54,761 nt of DNA from Planctomycetota bacterium (GTDB taxonomy: Bacteria; Planctomycetota; MHYJ01; JACPRB01). Of this stretch, positions 1 to 43,650 are shown piece after piece. Position 1 is the stretch's first letter; each line of letters opens with the position of its first letter. Below the pieces are notes generated by a model. The model saw only the letters and a list, made by a program, of their open reading frames with translations, did not search any database and was not told the origin of the DNA. Where the stretch lies: contig JACPRB010000082.1 in assembly GCA_016190155.1 (NCBI GenBank), positions 1 to 54,761 of the forward strand, in the 5' to 3' direction. The translations under genes and the position numbers were made by a program.

Positions 1-865
1 ATGCCGCGCCTTCCAGGAACGCGTCGATCTGCTCCCGTTCGCGATCCGCCTCATATTGGAGTTGTCCGCCGGGATAGACGTCACGGCGCGCGCAATCCTC
101 GAGCTCCGCCGCGACGGGCGCGTCGGATCCCAGTCTTTCTTGGAGGAAGGCCTCGATTTGCGGACGCATCGACATGAACTCCGCGGCGACCGTCGCCACC
201 GCGCGCACGCGGGCGCCCGCGGCTTTCAGGAGATCGATGCCGCGCATGACTCGTTCATAGGATCCTTCGCGGCGGTGGTTCACTCTGTGCTTGTCGTGGA
301 TCTCCGGGGGTCCGTCCAGGCTCACGACCACTTCGACGTCGTGTCTTCGGAAGAACTCGGCGGACTCAGGTGTGAGGAGCAAGCCGTTCGTGAAGATCCG
401 CTTGTACCATCGGCGGCCGGAGGAAGCGGCCTCGTCGAGGACGGCCTGGACCGTCGTCCATGCCAGCATCGGCTCGCCCCCGAAGAGGCTGAGGTCGAGA
501 TGCCGTTCGCGGGTGAGGCTCAGGAGCGCGCGCACGATCCGCCGGCCCATCTGCGGCGACATGACCGTGGGGCTTGCACGGTAATGACCCTGATCCACGT
601 TGCAGTAGCTGCAGGCCATGTCGCATGCGTGCGCGACGTTGATGACCGCCTGGGCGAAGGGATGTTCTTGCCGGCAGGCGGTGCCCGGCCAATAGCCCAA
701 GCGACCCAGCAAGGACCATTCCCGCTCGATCTCGACGGGAGGAGGGCCGCCTTCGCGCAGAACCCGACGCGCGTCGGCGGAGACCTGGTAGAGGCACGAA
801 GTACCGGCCACCAGCGCGAGGTCATCCATCCAATGCAGCCGGCCGGCGAATTCGTCGAGGTTCAT
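1..865 (-). CDS. radical SAM enzyme, second of a tandem pair; N-terminal part only, the gene runs off the left window edge
   Basis: Absent from the ORF track because it has no in-window stop. My reverse-strand translation from ATG 865..863 reads MNLDEFAGRLHWMDD...VINVAHACDMACSYCNVDQGHY...LSLFGGEPMLAW...VVSLDGPPEIHDKHR. CDMACSYC is the CX3CX2C radical SAM cluster motif. The ATG overlaps the upstream TGA (864..862) as ATGA. Confidence 0.8.
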   Translation of the reverse strand, partial: MNLDEFAGRLHWMDDLALVAGTSCLYQVSADARRVLREGGPPPVEIEREWSLLGRLGYWPGTACRQEHPFAQAVINVAHACDMACSYCNVDQGHYRASPTVMSPQMGRRIVRALLSLTRERHLDLSLFGGEPMLAWTTVQAVLDEAASSGRRWYKRIFTNGLLLTPESAEFFRRHDVEVVVSLDGPPEIHDKHRVNHRREGSYERVMRGIDLLKAAGARVRAVATVAAEFMSMRPQIEAFLQERLGSDAPVAAELEDCARRDVYPGGQLQYEADREREQIDAFLEGAA

Positions 866-2277
866 GTGGAAACCCACTCCGGCACGTTCGGCCGTACGGA
901 CGTCGCGGGAAAGAGGAAGATCGGCTTGAGCCCTGGCGACGACGTTCGCGCCAACTGGCGGAGGCGATAGGCCTGATCCAGCTTCTGCAGGGACGCGGCC
1001 TGCAACGGCTCGTACATCCGGCGGATGTCGGGCCATGTCAGATTCGAGGTGGCCGCCACGGCTTCGTGAATGAACTCCGTGGAGTACGCGCAGAACGCAT
1101 CGCTCGGCTCTCGGCCCGCCGCGAAGATCGAGGGACAGCCTTTGGGACACAAGTCGTGGGCCCAGCATGCCTCGCACTTTTTCGGAAGTGCGTCTCGCTG
1201 CGCCCGCAGGGCCGTCATCTTCTGCGGGTCCAGGCCTGAAAAGACGTCTCCGAGCCGGCGAGAGGGATTCCCCAGGTCGGAGCAATGGCAGTTGTAGATG
1301 AAGCCGTCGATGTCGACGAACGGAAAGCCCAAGCCGGACGGGCATTCGGGCCGAGGAGCCGCAGGGCCCAGGAGAAGGACGCCCATCAGGCGTGCCAGCT
1401 GCGTAGGATACCGCCCATCCCGCAGATCGCGACGAGTGGTTTGGAGGACGACGCTCCATGCTTCGCGCGCCTGAGGACCGGAGGTCCATCCGGATTCGGG
1501 GCCGATCGCCACGTGATTCCGCGGCGTCGCCAGTCGTCGGAGGTAGTCCTGCGCTTCCGTCGTACGTTCCGCGCCTTCGGGGGTCATGATGGCGACAAGG
1601 CCCATGGGGGCTCCGGCCGACAGCAGCGCCTGGATTCCGGAAAGCACCATCCCGTGAGAGCGATCGCCGGACTTGGTCGGGCGCCTGGGGTCGTGCAGGT
1701 CCTCCGGTCCGTCGATCGTCACCTTGGTGTGTACGCCGTGTTCCGCCAGGAATCGGGCGCGAGAGGCATCGATCATCGTGCCGTTGGTCGTCAGATGCAG
1801 CGACCACGTGCATTCGGGATGCTCTCGGGTGGCGCGGACGGCTGCTTCGAGGGCCTTCCAATTCAGCGTCGGTTCGCCGCCGAAAAGATAGAGGGAAAGG
1901 CGCGGGATCGAGCGGTTGCGCACGAGCCAACGAATGCTTTCTACGGCGACCTGTGGGGTCATGAGGCCGGGTTTCCCGCCGTAGAATCCCGTCTGGCCGA
2001 CGCAGCAATACGTGCACGCGAGATTGCAATTCCGGGCCAGGTTCAAGGCGAGACCCTGGAATCCGCCGGGCGTTCGCGGCGGGACATGGAATCCGTAGCC
2101 CAAGCGGTCGAGTACGCGCAGATCGCGTTCCGACGGCTCTTCGGATCGGAGTTCGTAAGCCAGCGGAGTGCCCGGAACGATGCCGTAGCGCCGTTCTTGG
2201 CACGTGAAACTTACGAGGCAGGCCGGGCGCACGCTGGTCTGGCCGCCCGGACGGCCTGGCTGTACTGATCCTTGCAT
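862..2277 (-). CDS. radical SAM/SPASM-domain peptide-maturase-like enzyme, first of a tandem pair
   Basis: Track ORF 862..2391(-). NLARNCNLACTYCCV gives CX3CX2C. The C-terminal KKCEACWAHDLCPKGC matches the SPASM CX2CX5CX3C pattern exactly. Start placed at MQGSV (2277) so it does not overlap the upstream gene ending at 2310. Confidence 0.85.
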   Translation of the reverse strand: MQGSVQPGRPGGQTSVRPACLVSFTCQERRYGIVPGTPLAYELRSEEPSERDLRVLDRLGYGFHVPPRTPGGFQGLALNLARNCNLACTYCCVGQTGFYGGKPGLMTPQVAVESIRWLVRNRSIPRLSLYLFGGEPTLNWKALEAAVRATREHPECTWSLHLTTNGTMIDASRARFLAEHGVHTKVTIDGPEDLHDPRRPTKSGDRSHGMVLSGIQALLSAGAPMGLVAIMTPEGAERTTEAQDYLRRLATPRNHVAIGPESGWTSGPQAREAWSVVLQTTRRDLRDGRYPTQLARLMGVLLLGPAAPRPECPSGLGFPFVDIDGFIYNCHCSDLGNPSRRLGDVFSGLDPQKMTALRAQRDALPKKCEACWAHDLCPKGCPSIFAAGREPSDAFCAYSTEFIHEAVAATSNLTWPDIRRMYEPLQAASLQKLDQAYRLRQLARTSSPGLKPIFLFPATSVRPNVPEWVST

Positions 2278-2309
2278 AACTGAGGAAGATGCTCTCGGCA
2301 GGCGAGCGC

Positions 2310-2792
2310 TCAGATAAGTTCGCAGCCCCCCATGCCGCATCCGACGGGGAAGACGGCGCACTCTTGCACGAAGCCTCCGACCCCCGTGCACCCTTGGACG
2401 ATCAGGTTCTCCGGGAGCAGCTCCCTCAACCGGATCTCCTGCAGGCGCATCGGGGTATAGGGTTTACGGGGCACTTGAGGCGTGACCGGTTTTCCCGCCG
2501 GGTCGTCGCCGAAGCGTACCGCGCCGATCGATGCCAGCTTCTTTACGAACGCCTGAAGCTCCTCGGCGGCCGCGCGCGCGTCCGCGTCGAAGGCGGCGCA
2601 TACGGCGTCCAAGACACCGGGGAGATCGGAGCCGTCGAGGATCTTCCAGACGAAGAGCGCGGTGTCGCCGGTCAGCTCGTAGAGCACGTCGGCCGACGGC
2701 TGGGTCGTAGGGATGAGAAAGACGGATTCGCCGGCGTCTCTGGACTCAAAAGCCTCGGTCTTTCGTATCCCCTGGGGGGCGTGTTGTGACAT
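2310..2792 (-). CDS. PqqD-like (RiPP recognition element-like) protein fused in frame to a 46-residue tail with a Cys/Gly-rich C-terminal end
   Basis: Track ORF 2310..2822(-). The core SVFLIPTTQPSADVLYELTGDTALFVWKILDGSDLPGVLDAVCAAFDADARAAAEELQAFVKKLASIGAV has the PqqD-family pattern. The tail is MRLQEIRLRELLPENLIVQGCTGVGGFVQECAVFPVGCGMGGCELI. ATG at 2792 is preceded by GAGGAA; a GTG at 2822 is an alternative start. Confidence 0.75.
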   Translation of the reverse strand: MSQHAPQGIRKTEAFESRDAGESVFLIPTTQPSADVLYELTGDTALFVWKILDGSDLPGVLDAVCAAFDADARAAAEELQAFVKKLASIGAVRFGDDPAGKPVTPQVPRKPYTPMRLQEIRLRELLPENLIVQGCTGVGGFVQECAVFPVGCGMGGCELI

Positions 2793-2877
2793 AGGTTCCT
2801 CGCTGGCCTGGAGCCGCCTCACAGGGCGCCATTTGACCGAAATTCGCGGGCTCGCACAAGGAACAACGCACTGCTCC

Positions 2878-3627
2878 TCAGTCGATCTCTTTCAATGTTC
2901 CGGCGGCGATCCGTTCCAGCGCGCGCACCCATTGTTGCGAATGTGGATCTTCGTGCGCCCGCAGAGGCGGGAAGGGGCGGATGGGGATGCCGGCGAAGGC
3001 GTCGCACTGGGTCTTCCAGCACTCGCGCCAATCCGAGCACAAGGCGTGGCGTCCATTTTGAAACAGAAAGGACCAGGCGTTCAGATCTTGCTCTCCGATG
3101 AGGAACAGGCCCCGCAGCGGAAGCGGTTCCCTACACAACAAGGGGCTTTGGGCCAGGCAGAAGGTCGGCCGGCTGAACCACGCCGCGGGGGCGCCGTGGC
3201 GGGTCAACAGTCGTACGCTGGAATCGCGAAGGGACATGGGCGTCGGAAACGGATGCGCGCGGCGGTCCTTCACGGAAACCGCGACGGAATCGTCGGACAA
3301 GAGGCGCGCCCCCTTGACGGCCATGAACAACGCGGCCGTTGTCTTGCCGGCCATCGATTGTCCGATAAAGCCGAAGGCGCCCTCCGCGGTGGCCACGGCC
3401 GCCCCGTGGAGAATGAGGTAGTTCGGGTGAAGCCGGGCAGCGACGCGGAGGCGAAACTCGTTGGCCTGGTTCGCCGCGCCTTTCGATTGAAGCACGATTT
3501 CTTCGGCTTCGCCCTCGGGCGCGACGCACCACGAGAAGTCGCGCAGGAGCATCTCGATCGCCTTGTCCGATGCGCGTGGCCGGCAGCGCCGGCCGAAGAA
3601 GTCGAAGACTGGGCCCAGAACCGTCAT
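2878..3627 (-). CDS. HPr kinase/phosphorylase-like P-loop protein (HprK-related kinase)
   Basis: C-terminal 249 aa of track ORF 2878..4254(-). LILHGAAVATAEGAFGFIGQSMAGKTTAAL resembles the HprK C-terminal domain P-loop. ATG 3627..3625 overlaps the upstream TGA (3626..3624) as ATGA. The longer ORF version overlaps the upstream gene and is rejected. Confidence 0.7.
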   Translation of the reverse strand: MTVLGPVFDFFGRRCRPRASDKAIEMLLRDFSWCVAPEGEAEEIVLQSKGAANQANEFRLRVAARLHPNYLILHGAAVATAEGAFGFIGQSMAGKTTAALFMAVKGARLLSDDSVAVSVKDRRAHPFPTPMSLRDSSVRLLTRHGAPAAWFSRPTFCLAQSPLLCREPLPLRGLFLIGEQDLNAWSFLFQNGRHALCSDWRECWKTQCDAFAGIPIRPFPPLRAHEDPHSQQWVRALERIAAGTLKEID

Positions 3628-4532
3628 GTCTGATGCGGATCGATCCACTGAAGCGGCACGAATCCGTTCCTCGCCGGCCGGCCTGCAGGGTGCAAACCGA
3701 GGCTCCGATACATCGCCAGCGGCACGCGTCGATAAACCAGGAATCCGGAACGGATGTGCCGGGCGCCGCGCCGCCTCGCCATATGGAGAGCCGCGGTCAA
3801 CAACAGCCGCGCGATGCCCAGACCTTGAAAGATCGCGCGAACATTCAAGTCCCAGAGTTCGAACGAGCCCGGTTCGCGCTCGATGAGATGGACATGGCCG
3901 GCCGGGTGTTGTCCGATCCAGCCTTGGATCTCGGTGACGCTTGCGGTGCGGACCTGTTCCTGAGCGGTCGCACGCGTGTACGGATGCCCGATCCAGGCGC
4001 ACCGGTCTCCCGTCGAGCGGATGGTCACGTGCGGCCGCAGCCAGGGGGCCACCGACACGGCGTAGAAGCGGCTGTGCAGGAGGATGGTGCACCACATTCG
4101 GAAGAAGTCGCGCACGGCGCGTTCCGCCCGCCATAGCCGTCCCCTGAGTCTGCGCAACCCGGCGAAGCGGGGCGGCGTCGCGAGCCTGTCGCGCATCCAT
4201 GTCCCATCGCGCCGGGTGGCGGCGACGAAGCCGACGATTTCGGACGTCGGGCATGGCGGATCGGGCATGGGGCTGCGGTCTCCTTGCGTGACCCAGTGTA
4301 CGCCGTCTCGCCGGACGACGCGATGCGCGATCATGCTTCCCGGGTCGGCGCCGCGTCGGACGACGATTTCGCCGGGGCGTGGCTCCCGCATCAGGGGCAC
4401 GATCAGCAGGTCGTCTCCCGGCAGCAAGGAAGGGACCATGCTGCCGCCGGCCAGCTTCAGAAGCGTGCCTTGCGCGCGGTCGATCATGGTCGTGCAGCTT
4501 ACCAAGATCCGCTCGTCCGCGGCCAGGGCCAA
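3624..4532 (-). CDS. fusion protein: S26/SipW-like signal-peptidase domain plus C-terminal GNAT acetyltransferase domain
   Basis: GGSMVPSLLPGDDLLIV is the S26 SMxP catalytic-Ser box. IAHRVVRRDGVHWVTQGDRSPMPD is a SipW/ER-type HRV...T(K)GD box. FQGLGIARLLLTAALHMARRRG is GNAT motif A (QxxGxA). The start is TTG at 4532; ATG at 4487 is an alternative. Confidence 0.7.
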   Translation of the reverse strand: MALAADERILVSCTTMIDRAQGTLLKLAGGSMVPSLLPGDDLLIVPLMREPRPGEIVVRRGADPGSMIAHRVVRRDGVHWVTQGDRSPMPDPPCPTSEIVGFVAATRRDGTWMRDRLATPPRFAGLRRLRGRLWRAERAVRDFFRMWCTILLHSRFYAVSVAPWLRPHVTIRSTGDRCAWIGHPYTRATAQEQVRTASVTEIQGWIGQHPAGHVHLIEREPGSFELWDLNVRAIFQGLGIARLLLTAALHMARRRGARHIRSGFLVYRRVPLAMYRSLGLHPAGRPARNGFVPLQWIDPHQT

Positions 4533-4597
4533 AGCTCTCAGACCTTTCTTGTCGATATACTTATGGCTCTCTGTGAGGGCCAGGAGAGAGGGGACTG

Positions 4598-5251
4598 ATG
4601 GGAAGAGATCCGATCGGATTCACGCCGGCCTCGATGATGGCCCGGCAGCGGTTGGGGCTGCCGCTTGCCGGCCGAATCGTGCTCTACGCCGGCCGGTTTG
4701 CGCCCACGCATCCGTTGGACTTGCTCATGGACATCGCGCCGGCGCTCATGGATCGCGCGCGGCTGCTCCACTTCGTGCTGATCGGGGACGGAGTGACGCG
4801 GCGACGGCTTGAGGCGATCGCCCGTGCGCGCTCGCTGGACGCCGCGGTCATCTTCGCGGGGGACGTCCCGTCCGAGGAGGTGACGGAATACGTGGTCGCA
4901 TCGGACGTGGGGCTTTATCTGTCGGCCTGTTTCGGCAGCCTGCCGCACTCGTTCTCGATTGATGAAGTCTGGCCGTTCCTGAGCGTCGGGCGCGCGATCG
5001 TGGCGGCGAGCGATCTGCCGGACCCGCGGCTCTTCGTGCAGGGGAACAACATCGGCTGCGCCGCGGAGATCACGGGTCGCCGCTCGCGGGACATGGAGAA
5101 TCTGGTGTTGGCGATTTCCTCCATGTTGATGGACGATCGCGCGCGCATGCGCCGGGCGGAGAACGCGCGGCAGTTGGGACGGAGTTTGCAGGCCGACCAC
5201 GCCGTGATGGGCTTCGCGAAGGCCTCGATGAGGCGCGCGGCGGTGCTGTAG
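4598..5251 (+). CDS. glycosyltransferase family 1 (GT4-like), C-terminal Rossmann domain only; apparently N-terminally truncated
   Basis: RIVLYAGRFAPTHPLDLLMDIAP...FVLIGDGVTRRRLEAIA...VIFAGDVPSEEVTEYVVASDVGLYLS...GRAIVAASD fits the GT1 C-terminal half. There is no room for an N-terminal domain because the divergent gene ends at 4532. GGAGAGAGGGGA lies upstream of the ATG. Confidence 0.6.
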   Translation: MGRDPIGFTPASMMARQRLGLPLAGRIVLYAGRFAPTHPLDLLMDIAPALMDRARLLHFVLIGDGVTRRRLEAIARARSLDAAVIFAGDVPSEEVTEYVVASDVGLYLSACFGSLPHSFSIDEVWPFLSVGRAIVAASDLPDPRLFVQGNNIGCAAEITGRRSRDMENLVLAISSMLMDDRARMRRAENARQLGRSLQADHAVMGFAKASMRRAAVL

Positions 5252-5260
5252 TCCGATTCC

Positions 5261-5850
5261 CGGCACGGTTCAATCTGGGGTTGTGCGAGGACGCAGCGCG
5301 GCGGTGCCGCAACCCGACAAGGGGCGATGGGTTCGGCATGAATTCCCACTCGGCTGGGAAAGACCAACCGCTGAGAACGCAGAGCCCGGGCAGAGGACGC
5401 CGAGATTCCCTTCTTGAGAATAAAACTCTGCGTCCTCCTTCCCGGTTTCAGCGGCCCCTGCGGTTGGTCGGTTGTTTTTCGGTTGATATCTCCGCAACGG
5501 CCTGAGACCGAGTGTATTGCGCAAACGCCCGGAAGAATCTTCGCGCCATGGCAAGCCGCAGCGCGGCGAATGCCGCAACCGAACGGGTTGTTGCGGCGAG
5601 CCGCCGCGCGATTGTTCATTGTTGATTTCAGACTGCGACACCGAGCGCCTTGAGGGCCAAGGCATTACAGGTACACGTGAAACATCTTCGCGCCATGGCG
5701 AAATCTGGATCGTTAGTAGTGCAGTGAGAGAACGAGAGAAATCGCCTCTCTGCCGCCTCTGCGTTCTGCGGTTAGGTTTTCTCTGCGTCCTCGAGTGATC
5801 GATATGCCGGCCACAACTGTTACCTTCATTTGAACCATGCCAGGATTTTC
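5261..5850. repeat. composite copy of the dispersed repeat family (left-TIR-like end, about 200 nt core, internal duplication); boundaries approximate
   Basis: 5261-5292 (cggcacggttcaatctggggttgtgcgagga) matches the ends at 25634 and 28953. 5293-5494 is the reverse complement of 43450-43650. atcttcgcgccatggc occurs twice (near 5538 and 5682). All track ORFs here translate to low-complexity junk. Confidence 0.7.
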
Positions 5851-5899
5851 TCGGGATTGGGGGGGCGGCATTTGAGATTTCTCGTATAATGCCCGCCCC

Positions 5900-6481
5900 A
5901 TGTATGACTACATCACCGGACAGGTCATCGAGAAGAAGCCCGACCACGTCGTGATCGATGCCGGCGGGGTGGGTTACCGCCTCGAGATCCCGTTGTCGAC
6001 ATACGAGAAACTGCCGCGACAAGGGACCGTCAAGGTGTATGCCTACCTGAAAGTGGCGGAAGACGAACACAAGCTGTACGGCTTCGCCACGGAGCGCGAG
6101 CGCGAGACCTTCCTGCGCTTGATCAACCACGTCAGCGGTCTGGGGCCGTCCAAGGCCGTGGCGATCCTCTCCGGAGTGGGCGTGGAGGAGCTGTCGCGCG
6201 CCATCGACGAAGGCAACGCGGTGTTCCTCAAGCGGGTGAAGGGCATCGGCGACAAGCTGGCCAATCGCCTGATCGTGGAGCTCAAGGGGAAACTTCCCGA
6301 GGCCGGAGCGGCAGGGAAGGGTCCGGAAGGCACGTCCTTGATGAAGGATGCCGTGCAAGCGCTGGTGGCGCTGGGCTATGATCGCGCCGAGGCCGACGAG
6401 GCCGTGCGCCGGGCGCAGAAGGATCTGCCGCCGGAAGCGCCCGTGGAGGAGCTCATCAGGAGGAGTTTGGCGAATGTATAG
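5900..6481 (+). CDS. ruvA: Holliday junction branch migration complex subunit RuvA
   Basis: MYDYITGQVIEKKPDHVVIDAGGVGYRLEIPLSTYEKLP...HLVSGLGPK-like HhH region...C-terminal domain III. Typical RuvA length (193 aa). Confidence 0.95.
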   Translation: MYDYITGQVIEKKPDHVVIDAGGVGYRLEIPLSTYEKLPRQGTVKVYAYLKVAEDEHKLYGFATERERETFLRLINHVSGLGPSKAVAILSGVGVEELSRAIDEGNAVFLKRVKGIGDKLANRLIVELKGKLPEAGAAGKGPEGTSLMKDAVQALVALGYDRAEADEAVRRAQKDLPPEAPVEELIRRSLANV

Positions 6482-7502
6482 GATGGGGTCGGCCGTGTGC
6501 GGGTTGGCGTTGCTCGCCGCCTGCGCGACGGAGAGCGAGGTCTTCAAGCACAACATGATGCTCGGCAAGCACTGGTTCGACAACGGTCGCTTCACCGAGT
6601 CGATGAAGAACTACACGCTGGCCCTCGAGGAAGAGCCCGAATACTACCCGGCGCTCCTGGGGTTGGCATGCGCGGCCGCGGAGCAAAGCCACGTTCTCTA
6701 CGGCCAGGCGGAGGACGCGCTGGTCGTGAACAAGCGCGACCTCGGACTGCGCGTGCTGCGGGATGCGGACAGGCACGCGGACTTGGCCAACCGTTCATTC
6801 GCCCGTTGTTTCCGGATGCGCGACGATTCCGCGACCAGCGCCAATTTTGCGCTCTTCCTCTACAAGCGCGCCACGTCGATACGCAACCTGCCTTATCCGG
6901 CGTCAGAGGAGATTCCCGAGGAATACCGGGGAACCGAACAGGAGAAGCGATGGAAGGCGGGCCTTCAGCAGCGGCACCGCGAGCTGGATGAAGCGATCCG
7001 TCAGTTCGAGATCGTGCTGAAGGACGACGCCGGCGGGCTCGGGACCGCCGAGCATGTCCGGCAATGCAAGACGCATCACGCGCACCGGTACCTGGGATTG
7101 GCGTTGTTCCTGCGTTCGGATTGGGACAAGCGCGACGGCGACTCGGGCCGGCAGCACCTGATGGCCTTCCTGGCGTACGTGCAATATGTGCGGGAGTACG
7201 TGATCGCGCGTTGGCCCGTGCGGGAGGAGCCGGACAAGCTGCGCAAGGAGCGGGAGATGAAACGCCTGGATGTCGACCTGGGCGAGATGCGCGCGCTGAT
7301 CCGCGAGCGGCTCAAGGTGCTGACGGAGTACGAGGGGGTCTTGCGCGAGGGGCGAAAGCAACCGGCTTTGACGGCGGAACAGCGGCAGAAGCGTCTGGGG
7401 GCGGTCGCCGTCGAGATCGAGGCGATCAGCGCGCTGGTGCGCGAGTTCGAGAAGGTGACGACGCCCTCTCCGGCCGCGCCCAAGGAACAGGGCCGGCGTT
7501 GA
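6474..7502 (+). CDS. lipoprotein with TPR-like N-terminal region and charged coiled-coil C-terminal region
   Basis: Start moved to MYRMGSAVCGLALLAAC (lipobox LLAAC); it overlaps the ruvA stop by 8 nt. No recognisable catalytic motif. Confidence 0.6.
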   Translation: MYRMGSAVCGLALLAACATESEVFKHNMMLGKHWFDNGRFTESMKNYTLALEEEPEYYPALLGLACAAAEQSHVLYGQAEDALVVNKRDLGLRVLRDADRHADLANRSFARCFRMRDDSATSANFALFLYKRATSIRNLPYPASEEIPEEYRGTEQEKRWKAGLQQRHRELDEAIRQFEIVLKDDAGGLGTAEHVRQCKTHHAHRYLGLALFLRSDWDKRDGDSGRQHLMAFLAYVQYVREYVIARWPVREEPDKLRKEREMKRLDVDLGEMRALIRERLKVLTEYEGVLREGRKQPALTAEQRQKRLGAVAVEIEAISALVREFEKVTTPSPAAPKEQGRR

Positions 7503-7722
7503 ACTTGGCCGCAGAAGCCAGGGCCGGCGACCGTCCAGCGGTCGCGGGCGGCGTCATGAACTCCTTGGGATAGTCGGCGGTGAAGAGGTACAGCGTAAAC
7601 GCGCTGAGACCGACCGCCAGCGACAGCATGGCTGCGTCGAGCAGTTTCATCGATCCGCTCCGTCCCGCGGAACGGCGCGCGTTCCGGCGGGATCCATCTC
7701 AATACCTTGTGGCCCCGCACGT

Positions 7723-8688
7723 TTATCGGCGTGGGGCGGGCAACACTTGAGTCGCCAGCGCGCGAACGGCGCGTTTGAGCGCGGCGACGGGGTGACGCAT
7801 CGGATCCGGATGGTGCGCGATCATCTCCTCGACGGGCACGCCCGGGTCGATCATGCGGCGTCCGCAGACGATCGCCACGGGCGCGGGCGAGACGCGCAGC
7901 ACCTCGCCGACGATCTTGCCCGCCAGCGAGGTCTCGTCAAGACAGCCTTCGCCGGTGATGACGAGGTCCGCCCCGCGGGCGCGCGGCCGGAAGCGGACGA
8001 GGCGCAGGATGGCGGGCGCGCCTGGGACGAGTCGGGCGCCGATGGACGCCAGCCCGCCCGCCAGTCCCCCGGCGGCTCCGGCCCCCGCCATCCGCCACAC
8101 CCGACGGGGCAGCGTTCGCATGCGCGCGTCGAGCTCGGGCATCATCTCGGGCGTCGCGCCCTTTTGGGGTCCGAAGATCCTCGGCGCGTCGAGCAGCCGC
8201 GTCTGGACGTCGCACAGCACCGTGACGTCGCGCGCGTGGTCGAGCACGTCGAGGGCGCCGCGGCCGGCGTCGACGGTGGCGCTGCCGCCCGCGCCCACGA
8301 GGATCCGTCGGGCGCCCGCGCGGCGTGCCGCGAGGATCAACTCGCCGGTCCCGCGCGTCGAGGCGCGCAGCGGATCGCGCTTCTGGGGAGGGACGAGGCG
8401 CAGGCCGCAGGCGTCGGCCATCTCGATGACGGCGGTGCGTCCGGCGAGGAGGAGACGCGCCCACACGGGTTGGCCGAGGGGACCCGTGACGCGGCGGCGA
8501 AGCATGCGCCCTCCCAGGGCGGCGTGGAGGCAATCGAGCGTGCCGTCGCCGCCGTCGGCGACGGGGATGATGATGACGCGGTGAGGCCGAAGGGCCGCGG
8601 CGATGGCCCGGGCGGCTTTCGCTGGGGTGAGCGTTTCCTTGAAGGCGGTCGGTGCCGCGACGACGGTGATCAGTTCTTGCTGAGCCAT
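7723..8688 (-). CDS. glycerate kinase family protein
   Basis: C-terminal 321 aa of fused track ORF 7723..9843(-). VADGGDGT, GAGGSATVDAGRG, VLCDVQ, GPQKGA, GAGAAGGLAGGL and ADLVITGEGCLDETSLAGK are glycerate kinase family signatures. ATG at 8688. Confidence 0.85.
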   Translation of the reverse strand: MAQQELITVVAAPTAFKETLTPAKAARAIAAALRPHRVIIIPVADGGDGTLDCLHAALGGRMLRRRVTGPLGQPVWARLLLAGRTAVIEMADACGLRLVPPQKRDPLRASTRGTGELILAARRAGARRILVGAGGSATVDAGRGALDVLDHARDVTVLCDVQTRLLDAPRIFGPQKGATPEMMPELDARMRTLPRRVWRMAGAGAAGGLAGGLASIGARLVPGAPAILRLVRFRPRARGADLVITGEGCLDETSLAGKIVGEVLRVSPAPVAIVCGRRMIDPGVPVEEMIAHHPDPMRHPVAALKRAVRALATQVLPAPRR

Positions 8689-9860
8689 TCCTGCCACAGG
8701 GTCCTGACGGTGGCGCGGTTGTCTTCGCGCGGCATCGGCGTGGAATGGCCCGTGAGATGTTGGAGGGCGGCCGTCGCGGCGCGACTGATTCCGAGGTCCT
8801 CGTGCATGATGTACTCGACCAGCTTCGGATAGGCGTCGCGACCCATCCGCTTGAGCATCTCCATGGCCTGGCCTTCCGGCCGGGTCGGTTCGTCGTACCC
8901 GCCCCCGGGGCGCAGATCCTGCATCAATCTCTCCCAATCGACGTTCTTCGGATCGATGGGGGCGTGGACCACTTTGAGGGGGCCCAGCTTGTCGCGATTC
9001 TTCGGATACCAGATGAACGACCAGAACTCGAACTCCGAGGCGCGGTAGCGCGCGGAATTGACCAGGGCCAAGTTCACCGGATTGCGTTGCGTTTCCTCGT
9101 TGCGGAGCTCCTTCTCCTCGCAGAACAGGTGCATCGCGTCGAACGCGGAGCGCGCGAGCGTCTCGTCGTCGCCGGCGAGGAGATTGATGACCGGTGCCAG
9201 GTAGCGTTCGGCCTTGGCGACGATGGCTCGATGGTCGCGCTTGCGAAGGAGGTCTTCGGCTTCCTTGGCGACGGCGGGTTCGACGGCGATCGGCTTGGCT
9301 TCGGGATCGACGAGTCGAGTCGCGCCGGGCTCCCACTGAGCGGGCGCTTCGTAGGTGCCGGCCTCCGTCTTCCGAAGGGAAGGGGGTTTCTTGTCGGCGG
9401 GCTTTGCGGGTTCCTCGGGCGTCTCGGGTTCGGGAGGAGGCGCGGTTACGCGCGCCGATCGGCCCGAGGTCGCCGGCTCGGTCTTCCGATCGTTCTTCGG
9501 GGATTGGGAGAAGTCGGAGATCAGGAAGATCATCACGCCGAAGATCGTCACGGCCCCGGCGACCATGACGATGACCAGGGGCGTCGTGTTGGAGCGCCGT
9601 CGGGCGCGGCGTGCCGTGCTGTGGCCGCCGCGGCTGGTCGGTTTGGCCGTGGCCATCTTGTGGAAGATAGGGGTTGCGTGGCGCATCGGGTCGGGCTTGC
9701 CTTCGGGGACCGCGGCCGCCTTGACCGGCACGCGTTCCGTTTCGCCCGTCGGGACGCGCATCGAGACGCCGCATTGGGGGCACGGGATGATCGCGCCTTT
9801 CTCGAGCGTTCCGGCGTCCAAGGAGAACCGGCACCGCGGACACTTGATCTGTTTGGCCAT
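8670..9860 (-). CDS. membrane-anchored Zn-ribbon protein with HEAT-like C-terminal domain (hypothetical)
   Basis: N-terminal CPRC...CPQC zinc ribbon, one TM helix (TPLVIVMVAGAVTIFGVMIFLI), a Pro/Glu-rich linker, then a helical-repeat C-terminus. Confidence 0.65.
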   Translation of the reverse strand: MAKQIKCPRCRFSLDAGTLEKGAIIPCPQCGVSMRVPTGETERVPVKAAAVPEGKPDPMRHATPIFHKMATAKPTSRGGHSTARRARRRSNTTPLVIVMVAGAVTIFGVMIFLISDFSQSPKNDRKTEPATSGRSARVTAPPPEPETPEEPAKPADKKPPSLRKTEAGTYEAPAQWEPGATRLVDPEAKPIAVEPAVAKEAEDLLRKRDHRAIVAKAERYLAPVINLLAGDDETLARSAFDAMHLFCEEKELRNEETQRNPVNLALVNSARYRASEFEFWSFIWYPKNRDKLGPLKVVHAPIDPKNVDWERLMQDLRPGGGYDEPTRPEGQAMEMLKRMGRDAYPKLVEYIMHEDLGISRAATAALQHLTGHSTPMPREDNRATVRTLWQEWLSKN

Positions 9861-9917
9861 CGTGTCCCCTCCTGTCGACCCGCCCCGACGGGGTGATTAT
9901 AGGGCGAGTCGGCGGTG

Positions 9918-9960
9918 CCGTTCAAAGGTTCGATCGTTCGACCGTTCAGCGGTTCAAAGG
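9918..9960. repeat. short GTTCAnnGGTTCG-type intergenic repeat cluster
   Basis: ccgttcaaaggttcgatcgttcgaccgttcagcggttcaaagg. Same unit family as at 20037, 24073 and 25475. Confidence 0.5.
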
Positions 9961-10940
9961 AGCGCGGCCGTCGCCCGCGTCATCTCGCAGGCGACGCGGA
10001 TCGCCCCGGCCATGGGGGCGGGATCGGCCTTGCCGGTGCCGGCGATGTCGAACGCGGTCCCGTGGTCGACGGACGTGCGGATGTAGGGCAGGCCGAGCGT
10101 CACGTTCGTGGCCGCCCGGTCGAGCGTCTTGACGGGGCCGAGCGCCTGGTCGTGATACATGCAGACGGCGGCGTCGAAGGCGCCGTCGAGCACGCGCCGG
10201 AAGATCGTGTCTCCTGGAAGCGGGCCGGCGACGCGCAAGCCGCGGGACTTGGCCGTTTCGATCGCGGGGGCGATGACGTCGATTTCCTCGCGGCCGAATT
10301 GTCCGCCCTCGCCCGCGTGAGGATTGAGACCGCTGACCGCGAGGCGAGGCTCCAGGACGCCGAAATAGCGCCGCAGGCCTTCGCCGGTGATCTCGAGGGT
10401 CGAGACGATCCGATCCGCGGTCAGCGCCATGGCGATCTTGCGCACGGCGAGATGTGTGGTGACGAGGGAGACGCGCAGCTTCCGCGACGTGAAGAACATG
10501 ACGGGATGCTTCACGTGCGCGCGGGCCGCGAGGTATTCCGTGTGGCCGATGAACGGCACGCCGGTCTCGGCGATGTGGCGTTTGGAGACGGGCGCGGTGG
10601 CGACGGCGTCGACCTTGCGCGACATCGCCAGATCCATCGCCAGGTCGATGGCCGCGAGCGCGGCACGTCCCGTCTCGGGAGACGGATGTCCGGGCGCGGG
10701 GGTCATGTCCTCGGCGACGGACCAGAGATTCACGGCGTGTTCCTCGCATTGCTCGACCGCCGAGACGCGGCGGATCTCGAGGCGCAGCCCCGATCGTTCG
10801 GCGGCGGTCCGGAGCACCTTCTCGCTGCCGATGACGAGGACCTTCGCGTCGGGAAGACGCGCGTCTCCGGCCAGGGCGCGGGCGACGACTTCCGGGCCGA
10901 TGCCGGCGGGATCGCCCAGCGTTATGGCGATGGTGCGCAT
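9954..10940 (-). CDS. pdxA: 4-hydroxythreonine-4-phosphate dehydrogenase PdxA
   Basis: MRTIAITLGDPAGIGPEVV...GHTEYLA...SVDHGTAFDIAGTGKADP are PdxA family signatures. Confidence 0.9.
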   Translation of the reverse strand: MRTIAITLGDPAGIGPEVVARALAGDARLPDAKVLVIGSEKVLRTAAERSGLRLEIRRVSAVEQCEEHAVNLWSVAEDMTPAPGHPSPETGRAALAAIDLAMDLAMSRKVDAVATAPVSKRHIAETGVPFIGHTEYLAARAHVKHPVMFFTSRKLRVSLVTTHLAVRKIAMALTADRIVSTLEITGEGLRRYFGVLEPRLAVSGLNPHAGEGGQFGREEIDVIAPAIETAKSRGLRVAGPLPGDTIFRRVLDGAFDAAVCMYHDQALGPVKTLDRAATNVTLGLPYIRTSVDHGTAFDIAGTGKADPAPMAGAIRVACEMTRATAALL

Positions 10941-10949
10941 GGGCCGGGG

Positions 10950-11684
10950 CTATTTGAGGAGCGTTTCGGGCAGTTCGAAGTTGGAGTGGACCTTCTGGAC
11001 GTCGTCGTTGTCCTCGAGAGCGTCCAGCAGGGAGATGAGCTTGCGTCCGGTGTCTTCGTCCACTTCGACGCGGTTCTTGGGCATCATCGCGATCTCCGCG
11101 GACTCGACCTTGTATTTCTTGGCGAGCGCGTCTTTGACTTTCGCGAAATCCGTCGGGGCGCAGGTGATCTCGAAGTAGTCGCCGCTCTTCTCCATGTTGT
11201 CGGCGCCCGCGTCGAGGACGTCGCCCATGAGCTCGTCTTCATTGATGCCGGCGATGGGGATGTTCATCACGCCTTTGCGCTCGAACATGAAGGCCACGCA
11301 CCCGGCGGTGCCGAGGTTGCCCGCGTGCGTCTCGAAGATCTTCCGGATCTCGTGCGCCGATCGGTTGCGGTTGTCGGTGAGCGCGTCGACCATGACGGCG
11401 ACGCCGCCGGGTCCGTATCCTTCGTAAGCGACTTCCTCGAACATGACGCCTTCGAGTTCGCCGGTTCCGCGCTTGATGGCGCGATCGATCGTGTCGCGCG
11501 GCATGTTCACGGCGCGCGCCGATTCGATGGCGTACAGCAGCTTGATGTTGTTGGCGGGATCGCCGCCGCCTTGGCGCGCGGCCATGATGATGAGCCGCGA
11601 CACCTTGGAGAAAGCCTTGCCCTTCTTGGCGTCGGCCGCTCCCTTCTTGTGCTTGATGGTCGCCCAGTGTGAATGTCCCGACAT
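10950..11684 (-). CDS. YebC/PmpR family DNA-binding transcriptional regulator
   Basis: MSGHSHWATIKHKKGAADAKKGKAFSK... is the invariant YebC N-terminus. Length is 244 aa. Confidence 0.95.
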   Translation of the reverse strand: MSGHSHWATIKHKKGAADAKKGKAFSKVSRLIIMAARQGGGDPANNIKLLYAIESARAVNMPRDTIDRAIKRGTGELEGVMFEEVAYEGYGPGGVAVMVDALTDNRNRSAHEIRKIFETHAGNLGTAGCVAFMFERKGVMNIPIAGINEDELMGDVLDAGADNMEKSGDYFEITCAPTDFAKVKDALAKKYKVESAEIAMMPKNRVEVDEDTGRKLISLLDALEDNDDVQKVHSNFELPETLLK

Positions 11685-11713
11685 GCGCGGCTCCGTCTCT
11701 TCTATTGCGAGGG

Positions 11714-11743
11714 ATTATAGGCGCGCCGTTCGTGGAGTGTCAA
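11714..11743 (-). promoter_or_regulatory. sigma70-type promoter for the YebC-family gene
   Basis: The minus strand reads TTGACA-18 nt-TATAAT about 30 nt upstream of the ATG at 11684. Confidence 0.55.
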
Positions 11744-11751
11744 CGCGCGAA

Positions 11752-11780
11752 TTGACGCGTGCGCTCGGGGCGCGTAGACT
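11752..11780 (+). promoter_or_regulatory. sigma70-type promoter; implies a leaderless mRNA for the M20D gene
   Basis: TTGACG-17 nt-TAGACT. The -10 ends 8 nt before ATG 11789. Confidence 0.5.
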
Positions 11781-11788
11781 GCCGCGGC

Positions 11789-12967
11789 ATGACGACACGC
11801 GAATGGGATGTTGCTTCGGAAGCGAGATCGCACGCGGCGGAACTCGTCGCGTTGCGGCGGTTGATCCACCGGTATCCCGAGCCCGGTTTCAAGGAGGAGC
11901 GTACCTCCGCGCTCATCGAACGGAGCCTCAGAGGTTTCGGGGTCGAGACGAAGCGTCTGTGCGGCACGGGTCTCGTCGGTCTCGTTCGCGGCGCGAAGCC
12001 GGGGCCGACCCTGCTCGTGCGGGCGGACATCGACGCGCTGCCGGTGCTGGAGGAGAACCGCGTTCCGTATCGCTCGCGGGTTCCGGGCATGATGCACGCC
12101 TGAGGGCATGACGGGCATGTGGCCATCGGTCTGATGGCCGCGAAGATCCTGGCGAAGCGCCGTTCGATGTTGGCGGGAAACGTGAAGTTCATGTTCCAGC
12201 CGGCGGAGGAGGGGCCGGGAGGCGCCAAGCCGATGATCGAGGCGGGTCTTCTGGAAAGACCGAGGGTCGACATGGCGTTCGCGCTTCATATGTGGAACGA
12301 CCTGAAAGTCGGCCGGGTGGGCGTGCGTCCCGGGCCGGTGATGGCGGGTGCGGATGAATGGAAGGTGACGATTCAGGGTCGCGGGGGGCACGGCGCGGCG
12401 CCGCATCAGACGATCGATCCGGTCGTGATCGCGTCGCACGTGGTGGTCGCGCTGCAGACGATCGTGAGCCGGAAGGTGGATCCCATCAAGTCGGCGGTCG
12501 TGACGGTGGGGCAGATTCAAGGGGGGAATCGGTTCAACATCATCCCGGACAGCGCCGTGCTGGTGGGCACGGTGCGGGCGCTCGAGGAGAAGGTGCGCCT
12601 GCGGGTGAGGCGCGAGGTGCACAAGATCGCCGCGGGCGTGGCGGCGTCGTTCGGCGCGCGCGCGGTCGTCGAGTACGACGACGGGTACCCGCCGACGGTG
12701 AACGATGCGAGGGCGACGGCGCTGATGCGGGCGGCGGCCGCGGAAGCGGTGGGGGAGAGGAACGTTGTCGAGCAGGACGTCACCATGGGTGCGGAGGACA
12801 TGTCGTACGTGCTCAAGGAGGTTCCCGGGTGCTTCTGGATGCTGGGGTCGGCGAATCCGGCGAAGGGGCTGAATCACCCGCACCATAGCGCGCGGTTTGA
12901 TTTCGACGAGCGGGCGCTGCCGATCGGACTGGAGATCTGGCTGCGGTTGGCGGGACCGCGGATTTAG
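11789..12967 (+). CDS. M20D-family amidohydrolase (hippurate hydrolase / N-acyl-amino acid amidohydrolase-like) with one in-frame TGA at 12101-12103
   Basis: Track ORFs 11759..12103 and 12119..12967 are in the same frame, separated only by the TGA. The read-through sequence is ...RADIDALPVLEENRVPYRSRVPGMMHA[TGA]GHDGHVAIGLMAAKIL...FMFQPAEEGPGGAK..., the M20D MHACGHD / QPAEE pattern. Confidence 0.8.
12119..12141 (+). other. hairpin 15 nt downstream of the in-frame TGA (candidate bacterial SECIS)
   Basis: GUGGCCAUC-GGUCU-GAUGGCCGC: a 9-bp stem (one G-U pair) and a 5-nt loop starting GGU. Confidence 0.35.
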
Positions 12968-25573: not shown

Positions 25574-25633
25574 TCACCCTCCGAGGAGGGCCGACTATAT
25601 CAGGACGTCTGCGCGAGGACGAATCCTTTTTCG

Positions 25634-25720
25634 GCACGGTTCAATCTGGGCTTGTGCGAGGAAGCAAAGGGGAGCGGAGCGCGCAAAGGAGAAACCGACA
25701 TCAGAGGACGCCGAGGACCC
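25634..25720. repeat. partial copy (left end only) of the MITE-like element
   Basis: gcacggttcaatctgggcttgtgcgaggaagcaaaggggagcggagcgcgcaaaggagaaaccgaca... aligns with 28953-29040. Confidence 0.65.
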
Positions 25721-28916: not shown

Positions 28917-28952
28917 TCTCTTCTCCTGACATTTTGAGTCTTTGCTTTTTGG

Positions 28953-29335
28953 GCACGGTTCAATCAGGGCTTGCGCGAGGAAACAGAGGGAAGCGGAGCA
29001 CGTAGAGAGGAAACCGACACCGGAGGACCCAGCGCGGCGACCGCAACCGAACTCGGGGTTCCTCCTTTTTCCGTCCGGAGAATACTATGAGGAAGCCAGG
29101 AAGCCAGGAGGAAGACCGAAGGATAGGACGGCCGACTTCCTTTCCTGGTTTCCTGCCTTCCTCAGAGATACTCAGGCGATTGGCCTGGAGGTTCATGAAG
29201 AATCTTGTCGTAGCACAGCAGAGGGTGCTGAGAGGCGGTTTCTTCCACTTTCTGCGACCCTCTGCGGCTTGGGCCTGGGCTCTGCGTTCTCTTCTTTCTC
29301 TCTGTTTCCTCGCACAAGGCCAAATTGAACCGTGC
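28953..29335. mobile_element. complete MITE-like non-autonomous element with about 36-nt imperfect terminal inverted repeats
   Basis: The left end is gcacggttcaatcagggcttgcgcgaggaaacagag. The right end is ctctgtttcctcgcacaaggccaaattgaaccgtgc; 30 of 36 positions are complementary. No believable ORF lies inside. Confidence 0.65.
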
Positions 29336-29481
29336 GGAAGCATTCAGAGATTCGGCTCCCCACCTCTCCCCTTCACTGCATCTCTCCTTTTCTTACACCC
29401 CTTCCCGGAATTCGTGGCACGTACTGGGGAATTCCTGCCCCTCGCCGCACTCCTTCGCAAAGCGGGCCCGAATCCTATAGA

Positions 29482-43324: not shown

Positions 43325-43650
43325 GGAGAGCCTGGAACGCTCAATCCGCCGGTTGAAAGGTCTTCTCTGCAGTACTCACGATCAACATCCTTCCACGGCG
43401 CGAAGATATTTCAGCGTGTTTACGCAACAAACTGGATCCCAAGCGGTTTCGGCGATATCAGCCGAAGGAAGTCCGATCAATCGCAGAGGACACTGAGACC
43501 AGGAAGGAGAACGCAGAGGATTCTCAAGAGGAGAATCTCTGCGTCCTCTGCCCGAACTCTGCGGTCTCAGCGGTTAGTCTTTCCCAGACGAGTGGGAATT
43601 CATGCAGAGCCCACCAACCCCTTGTTGGGTTGCGGCACCGCCGCGCCGCG
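43325..43650. repeat. copy of the dispersed repeat family, inverted relative to the 5261-5730 copy; boundaries approximate
   Basis: 43450-43650 is the reverse complement of 5293-5494. 43360-43440 matches the reverse complement of the 5500-5560 and 5690-5730 segments. There is an internal 14-bp hairpin acgcagaggattctc-aagag-gagaatctctgcgt at 43511-43544. Confidence 0.7.

Follow-up and report, generated by a model that had tools for sequence, protein, structure and literature searches.

Five genes with predicted peptide-modifying functions of several kinds lie at one end of a Planctomycetes MAG contig, and they raise the question of which substrate such a set would act on. The window analysed here is the entire contig of 54,761 bp, and the operon, genes A to E, runs from position 4532 to position 1 on the minus strand, with all ORFs present in an ORF check (Table 1). 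The sequence-only reading of this DNA had described five head-to-tail genes with two ATGA overlaps and short gaps; the ORFs bear this out, with overlaps at the A/B (3627-3624) and D/E (865-862) junctions and gaps of 85 nt between B and C and 32 nt between C and D, the latter counted to ATG 2277 of D (471 aa; the NCBI start is GTG 2232, 456 aa). All motifs that it had named were located at their positions. Codon-position GC is about 0.68/0.50/0.80 and equal across genes A to E and the C-terminal tail of C, so that this tail reads as coding. To the right of the operon, the truncated glycosyltransferase and repeat noted earlier correspond to a GT1 glycosyltransferase of which the C-terminal half is present (4598-5251, plus strand) and a dispersed repeat from 5261 on. 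The accompanying remark about an acquired island gains no support from composition, since GC content is level over the boundary.

Table 1. Coordinates of the operon genes and of the two parts of protein C in the window.
Feature	Position	Strand	Description
Gene A	3624-4532	-	302 aa, SipW/SEC11-type peptidase domain + GNAT
Gene B	2878-3627	-	249 aa, HPr-kinase-like P-loop protein
Gene C	2310-2792	-	160 aa, PqqD domain + 66-residue tail
PqqD-like RiPP recognition domain of C	2514-2765	-	residues 10-93, PF05402
C-terminal tail of C	2313-2510	-	residues 95-160, proposed precursor
Gene D	862-2277	-	471 aa, complete radical SAM/SPASM enzyme
Gene E	1-865	-	first 288 aa only, second radical SAM enzyme

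The N-terminus of A is a SipW/SEC11-type (archaeal-type) signal-peptidase-like domain (TIGR02228, E = 6.7e-9) that scores just under the PF00717 (S24/S26) cut-off (23.0 against 23.3 bits). It aligns to human SEC11A/C over GSM, HR and GD, and carries the motifs GGSMVP (4431-4448), AHRV (4317-4328) and QGDRS (4272-4286), in which S31, H70 and D85 form a candidate triad. Residues 203-275 are a GNAT domain (PF00583, 30.8 bits, cut-off 20.7) with the motif QGLGIA (3810-3827, residues 236-241), in agreement with the earlier assignment. Gene A is thus proposed to encode a leader peptidase and N-acetyltransferase. Gene B, proposed to encode a peptide kinase, matches TIGR04352 (HprK_rel_A) with E = 1e-11 and 44.5 bits (cut-off 200) and PF07475 weakly (17 bits, cut-off 33.3). 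Its motifs are GQSMAGKTT (3337-3363) and LSDD (3289-3300), and its PDB matches are to HprK/P only and cover H74-G, GxSxxGKT and LSDD. Both the S26/SipW-like call on A and the HprK call on B are thus based on conserved catalytic motifs and sub-threshold profile scores rather than on family membership.

The radical SAM assignments of D and E are firm (PF04055, 62.7 and 60.6 bits, cut-off 29.5), as is their paralogy (32% identity over 200 residues, E = 1e-27). Gene D carries CNLACTYC (2005-2028) and the SPASM motif CEACWAHDLCPKGC (1135-1176), an exact CX2CX5CX3C as described previously. Its cysteine set is complete, with ten cysteines invariant in 92 homologues (C84/88/91, 312, 330, 368/371/377/381 and 396). 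Gene E carries CDMACSYC (602-625) and is cut off by the contig end ahead of any SPASM domain. The best NCBIfam match of both is PapB, at 144.8 bits for D, under the cut-off of 340, and 108 bits for E. The AF2 model of D (pLDDT 76.6, with low confidence in its N-terminal extension) matches the structures of CteB (E = 2e-17) and anSME (E = 5e-17). We propose that D is a thioether-type crosslinking maturase.

In gene C, the PqqD-like assignment is supported by a PF05402 score of 30.7 bits (cut-off 23.4). All 21 remote matches found in an exhaustive phmmer search (21/21) fall on this region, and a PDB match indicates a weak resemblance to the lasso RRE TbiB1. An AF2 model of C from its single sequence reached a pLDDT of 37. 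Beyond the domain, the tail consists, in order, of a proline-rich linker, the leader-like PYTPMRL (2442-2462) and a Gly/Cys-rich end. The putative core, CTGVGGFVQECAVFPVGCGMGGCELI, follows the leader-like stretch PYTPMRL...LLPENLIVQG. The cysteines of the tail are C135, C145, C152 and C157; the putative core is without Ser, and Thr136 is the sole Ser/Thr near its start. The sequence-only reading had merely hinted at this tail as a substrate.

Distant cassettes with a PqqD protein, a radical SAM/SPASM enzyme, a small Cys-rich precursor, an HprK-like protein and an S24 peptidase occur in other phyla. Among the HprK-like genes retrieved with our alignment A2, a PqqD gene was present in the fetched locus (~10 kb) at 23 of 30 genome loci. 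PqqD, radical SAM/SPASM, HprK-like and S24 peptidase genes were found together in L007, L027, L034 and L036, and the S24 genes of the first three were matched by the peptidase domain of A. The metagenome loci L038, L040 and L043/44 have the order PqqD, radical SAM, small precursor, HprK-like; in L045 all four are present, but the HprK-like gene comes first. The co-location in other genomes that had been set as a test of the earlier reading is therefore seen at the level of distant homologues. We treat these loci (L007 to L045 as listed) as one unnamed cassette family, in which a giant C25-like protein also occurs and NTP_transf_5 is frequent, and whose radical SAM enzymes are ~360-aa MftC/PqqE-like proteins to which D and E are not orthologous.

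Seven stand-alone precursors share KKPYxKPxhxxVxLxPEEAVLxACK and further Cys, and the PqqD proteins encoded at their loci are short, at 96-117 aa. An HMM built from all seven precursors matches the tail fused to the PqqD domain in L007 (160 aa) with E = 9e-7. The same PqqD-tail architecture is found in P0141, the third fused protein, whose gene has a 4-nt overlap with a radical SAM gene. The HMM, made without the window sequence, did not find the tail of C, so it is pairwise scores, together with a common architecture and position, that tie the latter to the precursors. In Smith-Waterman comparisons with 2000 shuffles each, the tail scored z = 6.1 against the L027 precursor and z = 5.3 against that of L034 (0/2000 shuffles reached either score), with p = 0.0025 for L036, 0.0065 for L007 and 0.0075 for P0141. 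The likeness of stand-alone precursors to a PqqD-protein tail is significant for L007 and only modestly so for the window. Roughly the last 50 residues of C are most likely the substrate. A RiPP operon is also conceivable in which the precursor is a separate small gene left of the contig end, downstream of E, and the tail of C extends the chaperone for docking, regulation or the binding of a metal or Fe-S cluster. The contig stops inside E, so a separate precursor, exporter or NTP transferase could sit to the left, and both the failure of the precursor profile on the window tail and the prevalence among related cassettes of a precursor as its own gene would fit such an arrangement. We nevertheless consider it less likely, given the L007 homology and the shuffle results against two stand-alone precursors. 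In addition, no second precursor was seen in the fused-tail loci within the sequence available, and the three fused proteins differ in the Cys spacing of their tails, a point against a structural metal site.

It is unlikely that D and E instead mature a protein encoded to the left, as QhpD does on QhpC (quinohemoprotein amine dehydrogenase) or anSME on sulfatases. The nearest database relatives of D, at 34-37% identity, are indeed QhpD proteins inside qhp operons, and anSME is among its best structural matches, but D scores far under the cut-offs of the QhpD (95.5 against 453 bits) and anSME (77.5 against 349 bits) HMMs. The operon is also without a Qhp subunit or a sulfatase, and its tight coupling with PqqD, HprK-like and SipW-like genes is a RiPP signature, as in LPP and lasso clusters. 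Still less credit can be given to a non-functional remnant or a MAG assembly chimera in which the PqqD-tail fusion is a sequencing artefact, for instance through a frameshift or the loss of a stop codon. The four complete ORFs are intact, with catalytic motifs kept and translational coupling, codon-position GC is uniform through the tail of C, and fusions of the same architecture occur independently in two unrelated assemblies. On the other side, the sequence derives from just one MAG contig, the operon has repeats and a truncated glycosyltransferase as neighbours, and no close homologues of B or C were found among 5.8 billion proteins. Given MAG sequence without close relatives, conservation is no means of confirming the cluster as a unit.

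Several known systems share parts of this set. The SynChlorMet cassette (ScmA/C/D/E/F, NCBIfam TIGR04248-04252) is defined bioinformatically, and we know of no characterisation of it. The window resembles it in gene order (HprK-like ScmC, PqqD ScmD, two radical SAM genes) and in a Cys-rich precursor with a PYxxPxh leader; an SCM-like locus, L030, has 'KLPYEPPEIIDLGG'. However, B, C, D and E gave no match to Scm models at E < 0.01, or none among their best matches, D and E belong to the ~450-aa PapB/QhpD/SCIFF clade rather than to the ScmE/F clade (~355 aa), and the SCM definition is without a peptidase-GNAT. The unnamed cassette family has the same four functional parts, precursors that resemble the window tail, and the PqqD-precursor fusion in two cases. 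In contrast, component identities are only 32-42% over partial lengths (B and the ScmC-type protein of L007 share 42% over 55 residues), and its radical SAM enzyme is of another clade and single, whereas the window has two. The window has no counterpart of its C25-like protein, and the window GNAT domain as query detected no GNAT in its loci. D resembles the PapB/CteB/QhpD (ranthipeptide/SCIFF) maturases in best HMM (PapB), nearest sequence (QhpD), best structure (CteB) and a full cysteine set for three clusters, and the candidate substrate is rich in Cys and contains Glu. Every HMM score is well under its curated cut-off, however, the N-terminal extension of D is short at about 70 residues, and the chemistry of D is predicted. 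To our knowledge, such maturases have no HprK-like or SipW-like partners. Phosphorylated lasso peptides of the paeninodin type share the HprK-like kinase, a discrete PqqD protein (B1) and a Y/WxxP leader, and several of the HprK-like loci retrieved carry lasso-like precursors. By contrast, lasso cyclase and B2 protease are missing from the operon, and the tail of C is without Thr at -2 and without Asp/Glu at core positions 7-9.

Among characterised systems, LPP comes closest: the linear polyphosphorylated peptide clusters LppA/K/B/S/D/N, whose described range is confined to Bacillota (Popov et al., Nat Commun 2026; PMC13381572). Experiments in that work established that leader removal by the SipW-like LppS requires presentation by the recognition protein LppB, and that the HprK-like LppK phosphorylates core Ser3, with Thr not accepted in its place; the leader motif is YxxPxV (PMC13381572). 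The earlier description of the PqqD/HprK-related pairing as uncharacterised has thus been superseded, as the trio of peptidase, PqqD protein and HprK-like kinase is the LPP core and was demonstrated by experiment in 2026 (PMC13381572). The window shares with LPP the SipW/archaeal-type Ser/His/Asp leader peptidase, the PqqD-type recognition element, the HprK-like kinase, a Tyr-x-x-Pro-type leader motif and a position next to glycosyltransferase or polysaccharide genes. It differs in coming from a Planctomycetes MAG, in two additional radical SAM enzymes, in the GNAT fused to the peptidase, in the putative precursor borne as C-terminal tail by the recognition element, in the motif YTPM rather than YxxP, and in the core without Ser. 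Local HMMs gave no match to an NTP transferase outside the operon, again unlike LPP, and no exporter gene is apparent in the operon or its right flank. The words radical SAM, rSAM, SPASM, GNAT and acetyltransferase are absent from the LPP paper, which mentions no natural fusion and uses "fused" for engineered tags only (PMC13381572). The whole set, GNAT and both radical SAM enzymes included, is undescribed in the searched literature, as the sequence-only reading had supposed of the combination.

Domain searches for each gene and co-location elsewhere support the central idea of a RiPP-type peptide-modification operon. We put at roughly 0.55 the probability that it is a RiPP pathway in which precursor and recognition domain form one protein and two modules are joined. 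One module, for recognition, phosphorylation and cleavage, would comprise C (PqqD-type), B (HprK-like) and A (SipW-type Ser/His/Asp peptidase), and is found both in the LPP family and with phosphorylated lasso peptides. The other would comprise the two CteB/PapB/QhpD-clade radical SAM enzymes, D, whose SPASM domain is complete, and E, which is truncated. The departures from LPP in leader motif and core Ser, the sub-threshold HprK and peptidase scores, and the non-orthology of D and E to the radical SAM enzymes of the cassettes weigh against this reading. The PqqD domain would bind and present the YxxP-like motif in the tail of the same protein or of a second copy. D and E would then use the four Cys to build intramolecular thioether crosslinks, and B would transfer phosphate to a hydroxyl near the core start (Thr136). 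The peptidase domain of A would cleave between leader and core, and its GNAT domain would acetylate the newly exposed amine.

The most interesting element of the operon is gene C, whose product joins a PqqD domain (30.7 bits, above the Pfam threshold) to a tail of 66 residues. The tail contains PYTPMRLQEIRL, with a Y-x-P-M motif within a proposed leader (PYTPMRL), and lacks HQ and FET; its proposed core, with four Cys, has no Ser, and Thr136, adjoining the first Cys, is the only Ser or Thr in it. The boldest reading of the data, to which we give a probability of about 0.4, is that C naturally unites a RiPP recognition element and the leader and core that it recognizes. The substrate would thus bring along its chaperone, with recognition taking place intramolecularly or in a domain-swapped dimer; two radical SAM enzymes (genes D and E) would then crosslink it, it may be phosphorylated, and a bifunctional peptidase-acetyltransferase (gene A) would release it by cutting and capping in one step. 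With P0141 and the PqqD-tail protein of the related contig L007, it would form a class of self-guided RiPP precursors. The fusion of recognition element and precursor is in itself probable, being well supported for L007 and only moderately for the window. No description of self-guided precursors of this kind was found in the searchable literature, where only engineered tags turned up.

Five minus-strand ORFs were confirmed at the left end of the window, and their coordinates bear out the five-gene operon with two ATGA overlaps described in the sequence-only reading, each of whose quoted motifs was found in its place. Codon-position GC (approximately 0.68/0.50/0.80) is alike in all five genes, and the proteins carry HYY16_ locus tags from the Planctomycetes MAG annotation. 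Exact-sequence queries with B and C turned up no contig, and the longest one recorded for these proteins in the protein database, 54,761 bp, is the window itself; E is thus truncated by the contig end. To the right lie half of a GT1 glycosyltransferase, dispersed repeats, ruvA, a TPR protein and glycerate kinase; the cluster therefore begins at 4532. GC content is flat across that boundary, giving no compositional sign of the acquired island that had been suggested.

Coordinates of operon genes and of Peptidase_C25-like proteins in related loci
Feature	Sequence	Position	Strand	Remark
Gene A (peptidase-GNAT)	window	3624-4532	-	ATGA overlap with B at 3627-3624
Gene B (HprK-like)	window	2878-3627	-	85-nt gap to C
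Gene D (radical SAM)	window	862-2277	-	32-nt gap from C; NCBI start is GTG at 2232
Gene E (radical SAM)	window	1-865	-	ATGA overlap with D at 865-862; cut by contig end
Peptidase_C25-like	L007	3412-9987		
Peptidase_C25-like	L027	13872-16076		
Peptidase_C25-like	L036	12641-15718		
Peptidase_C25-like	L040	4040-7161		
Peptidase_C25-like	L043 / L044	4941-10217 / 5005-10281		

The flank has features of its own. A 217-aa ORF at 4598-5251 (+), divergent from gene A and approximately 65 nt from its start, covers only the N-terminal ~100 of the 172 profile positions of Pfam Glycos_transf_1, which is the C-terminal domain of GT1 enzymes, and is therefore read as a GT1 fragment. LPP (linear polyphosphorylated peptide) clusters, too, are reported to occur inside polysaccharide loci (Popov et al., 2026; PMC13381572). 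A dispersed intergenic repeat with a core of approximately 40 nt, CGGCACGGTTCAATCTGGGCTTGTGCGAGGAAGCA, is present in at least four copies (5261-5295, 25632-25666, 28951-28985 and, inverted, 29300-29339), and another of approximately 100 nt in two (5321-5421 and, inverted and 87% identical, 43520-43620). Rfam gave no match anywhere in the window, both repeats included, and a promoter and terminator scan of positions 1-6000 returned nothing exceeding chance.

Proteins B and C are rare, with only self-matches among 5.8 billion proteins. An exhaustive phmmer search of 1.84 billion representatives with C gave 21 weak matches (E of 1e-5 or worse), all on the PqqD domain, and two of them, P0124 and P0141, also have a PY(E/T)PP linker and a Cys-rich end. 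P0124 is encoded on NCBI contig L007, where its true ORF of 160 aa is the same size as C, together with an ABC transporter, a radical SAM/SPASM protein, an S24 peptidase, a 2191-aa C25-like protein, a ScmC/HprK-like protein and an NTP_transf_5 protein. L007 has counterparts of B, of C and of the peptidase domain of A, each 32-42% identical over partial lengths (E of 6e-9 to 3e-7). The radical SAM (1519-2100) and SPASM (2042-2674) domains of one L007 gene lie in different frames, an apparent frameshift or assembly error of the public contig.

Wider scans recovered the same association. A genome scan with an HprK-like alignment yielded 30 loci, 23 of which had a PqqD gene within approximately 10 kb by local HMM mapping; L027, L034 and L036 combine PqqD, radical SAM, HprK-like and S24 genes. 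The PqqD-tail alignment confirmed no locus in a genome scan; in a metagenome scan it found L038, L040 and L043/44, where a PqqD gene is followed by a radical SAM/SPASM gene, a small ORF and an HprK-like gene, and L045, with the same four genes and the HprK-like one first. The expected co-location of distant homologues in other genomes is thus borne out by these genomic and metagenomic loci, and the RiPP interpretation of the sequence-only reading is supported by the domain matches and related loci together. At five distinct loci a very large secreted Peptidase_C25-like protein (734-2191 aa) adjoins the PqqD/radical SAM/precursor/HprK-like cassette; the window has no homologue of it. Positions 10496-12712 and 3546-5030 of L034 hold two further features of its cassette, a fusion of NTP_transf_5 with Wza-like domains for polysaccharide export (Poly_export and SLBB) and a gene for a B12-binding radical SAM protein.

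Evidence for the fusion comes from stand-alone precursors. Beside the radical SAM gene of L027, L034, L036, L038, L040, L043 and L045, a small ORF encodes KKPYxKPxhxxVxLxPEEAVLxACK and then a variable stretch with more Cys. An HMM of these seven peptides matched the L007 PqqD protein in its tail (E = 9e-7 among 14,773 translated segments), which indicates that precursor and recognition domain form one polypeptide in L007. PqqD proteins of loci with separate precursors are short (96-117 aa), and loci with fused tails showed no separate precursor in the sequence examined. The third fused protein, P0141, has a 4-nt overlap with a radical SAM gene. Precursor HMMs built without the window sequence left the tail of C undetected, and the match of an earlier leader HMM was set aside as circular, the window sequence having been among its inputs. 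In Smith-Waterman comparisons the tail scored above all 2000 composition-preserving shuffles against the L027 and L034 precursors (z = 6.1 and 5.3), and at p of 0.0025-0.0075 (2000 shuffles) against L036, L007 and P0141, while five further pairwise comparisons fell short of significance at p < 0.01. What aligns is (R/K)KPY, then a hydrophobic position at Y+5, L-x-PE(E/N), three hydrophobics, Gly and the first Cys. Single-sequence AF2 prediction of C reached a pLDDT of 37 and gave no usable model of tail binding in cis. An in-frame GTG at 2472-2474 (Val107 of C) stands five codons 5′ of PYTPMRL, with a purine-rich GGGAAAA approximately 17 nt upstream; initiation at this candidate start would yield a free 54-residue precursor, near the size of the stand-alone ones.

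The domain assignments of the other operon proteins are of unequal strength. Those of the PqqD domain and of the C-terminal GNAT domain of A (PF00583, 30.8 bits) were upheld above threshold, and the HprK and S24/S26 assignments of the sequence-only reading scored below it. The N-terminus of A resembles archaeal-type signal peptidase I (TIGR02228, E = 6.7e-9, sub-threshold) and falls 0.3 bits under the Peptidase_S24 threshold at 23.0 bits; the best PDB matches of A are human SEC11C/A, in an alignment spanning GSM (S31), HR (H70) and GD (D85), and residues 236-241 form the acetyl-CoA motif QGLGIA. Protein B matches HprK-related models alone and weakly (TIGR04352, E = 1e-11; PF07475, 17 bits against a cut-off of 33.3), and its sole PDB matches are HprK/P, aligned over H-G (H74), the P-loop GxSxxGKT and (A/S)DD. 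With conserved P-loop, H74 and SDD motifs and sub-threshold profile scores, B is a putative HprK-like kinase.

D is a complete radical SAM/SPASM enzyme with CX3CX2C and seven SPASM Cys, and C84/88/91, C312, C330, C368/371/377/381 and C396 do not vary when D is aligned with ~91-92 homologues. This Cys pattern is that expected of the thioether-forming clade, with a predicted radical SAM cluster and two auxiliary clusters. Its AF2 model (pLDDT 76.6, nearly all 10-residue blocks of residues 71-420 above 70) had CteB (5WHY, E = 2.2e-17, TM 0.62/0.68) and anSME (4K36, E = 5e-17) as best Foldseek matches, pointing to the fold of a SPASM peptide maturase. The best HMM is that of the ranthipeptide maturase PapB (144.8 bits, cut-off 340), SCIFF scores 99.1 (cut-off 425) and QhpD 95.5 (cut-off 453), so that D exceeds none of these three curated cut-offs. 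Its nearest database relatives are QhpD proteins in qhp operons (34-37% identity). E is paralogous to D (32% identity, E = 1e-27) and has CX3CX2C; its C-terminus is lost at the contig end. From clade and predicted fold, D and E are putative thioether-type crosslinking enzymes.

The operon belongs to no curated family. It would work most like the tailoring modules of LPPs and phosphorylated lasso peptides joined to a ranthipeptide/QhpD-like crosslinking module. LPPs were defined in Bacillota, to which they are described as restricted, and their module is akin to that of phosphorylated lasso peptides: LppK polyphosphorylates core Ser3, and LppS cuts off the leader only if LppB presents it (Popov et al., 2026; PMC13381572). 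According to the same paper, no SpI-like peptidase had previously been described in RiPP pathways; the terms radical SAM, rSAM, SPASM, GNAT and acetyltransferase are absent from its text, in which "fused" refers to engineered tags only (PMC13381572). S31/H70/D85 of A correspond to the Ser/His/Asp triad S29/H68/D93 of LppS, and A is accordingly a predicted SipW/archaeal-type signal-peptidase-I-like leader peptidase with such a triad. Unlike the discrete recognition element of LPP clusters, however, the PqqD domain of C has the 66-residue tail attached, and that tail has neither the LPP leader YxxPxVLxHQxIxFETxxS nor a counterpart of the phosphorylated Ser3. The LPP core set also includes an NTP transferase (PF14907) and an MsbA-like exporter, whereas no exporter is among the operon and right-flank genes as assigned, and the L007 NTP_transf_5 protein, as a phmmer query, had no match in the 54.8-kb window.

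SynChlorMet (TIGR04248-04252) resembles the operon in gene order alone, that of B-C-D-E: B and C have no Scm match at E < 0.01, no Scm model is within the 25 best matches shown for D and E, the ScmA model matches none of the tails, that of C not even at E up to 10, and partner genes are missing. A SynChlorMet-like locus with two radical SAM genes was seen in a Syntrophaceae MAG (L030), where 9848-10210 (-) encodes a 120-aa ScmA-like precursor with the leader MKSKFKLPYEPPEIIDLGG and then many C(L/Q)(T/A)G-x-(S/T)AS-G repeats. The HPr-rel-A system (TIGR04352/TIGR04353) was rejected on scores, B reaching 44.5 bits against a TIGR04352 cut-off of 200 and C having no TIGR04353 match, and QhpD/anSME membership was rejected on HMM scores and absent partner genes. 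Lasso peptide biosynthesis fares no better: the five genes encode no Asn-synthetase-like cyclase or transglutaminase-like B2 protease domain, and the tail of C differs from lasso precursors in having no Thr at -2 and no Asp/Glu ring acceptor at core positions 7-9. Small ORFs with lasso-like leaders, such as RKPYKKPTVTRYGRLKDLT-GGTGNANE, were found in L021 (7426-7584), L026 (7778-7957) and L033 (9159-9578). The ORFs of L021 and L033 end immediately before the HprK-like gene, and that of L026 lies ~1.8 kb upstream of it; all three loci are probably clusters for phosphorylated lasso peptides. No paper combining HprK with SPASM, and none on "SynChlorMet", was found in the searchable literature.

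Under the self-guided fusion reading, the PqqD domain would bind the Tyr-Pro motif of the tail, D and E would put thioether-type crosslinks on its four Cys, and B may phosphorylate a hydroxyl, for which Thr136 is the sole core candidate; related precursors have a Ser/Thr no more than five residues after the first Cys. The SipW-like domain of A would then cut near LIVQG/C, and the fused GNAT would acetylate the new N-terminus, the peptidase-GNAT fusion suggesting a coupling of leader removal with N-terminal capping. Weak points of this scheme are Thr rather than Ser as the sole acceptor, the YTPM motif, the sub-threshold peptidase and kinase scores, the missing left end and the low pLDDT of C.

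If the tail of C is the substrate, recognition element and recognized peptide would form a natural single polypeptide. This would bear on the evolution of leader recognition, because related cassettes include both fused and separate precursors, and would offer a compact engineering scaffold, because the substrate would come with its own chaperone. The recognition/kinase/SipW-peptidase module has distant relatives beyond Bacillota, in the Planctomycetes MAG here and in Acidobacteriota and delta-proteobacterial MAGs in the related cassettes, and its joining to radical SAM crosslinking in these relatives suggests a portable platform common to several RiPP classes. The natural products of Planctomycetes are, to our knowledge, little studied, and the product of this operon would be a new crosslinked peptide.
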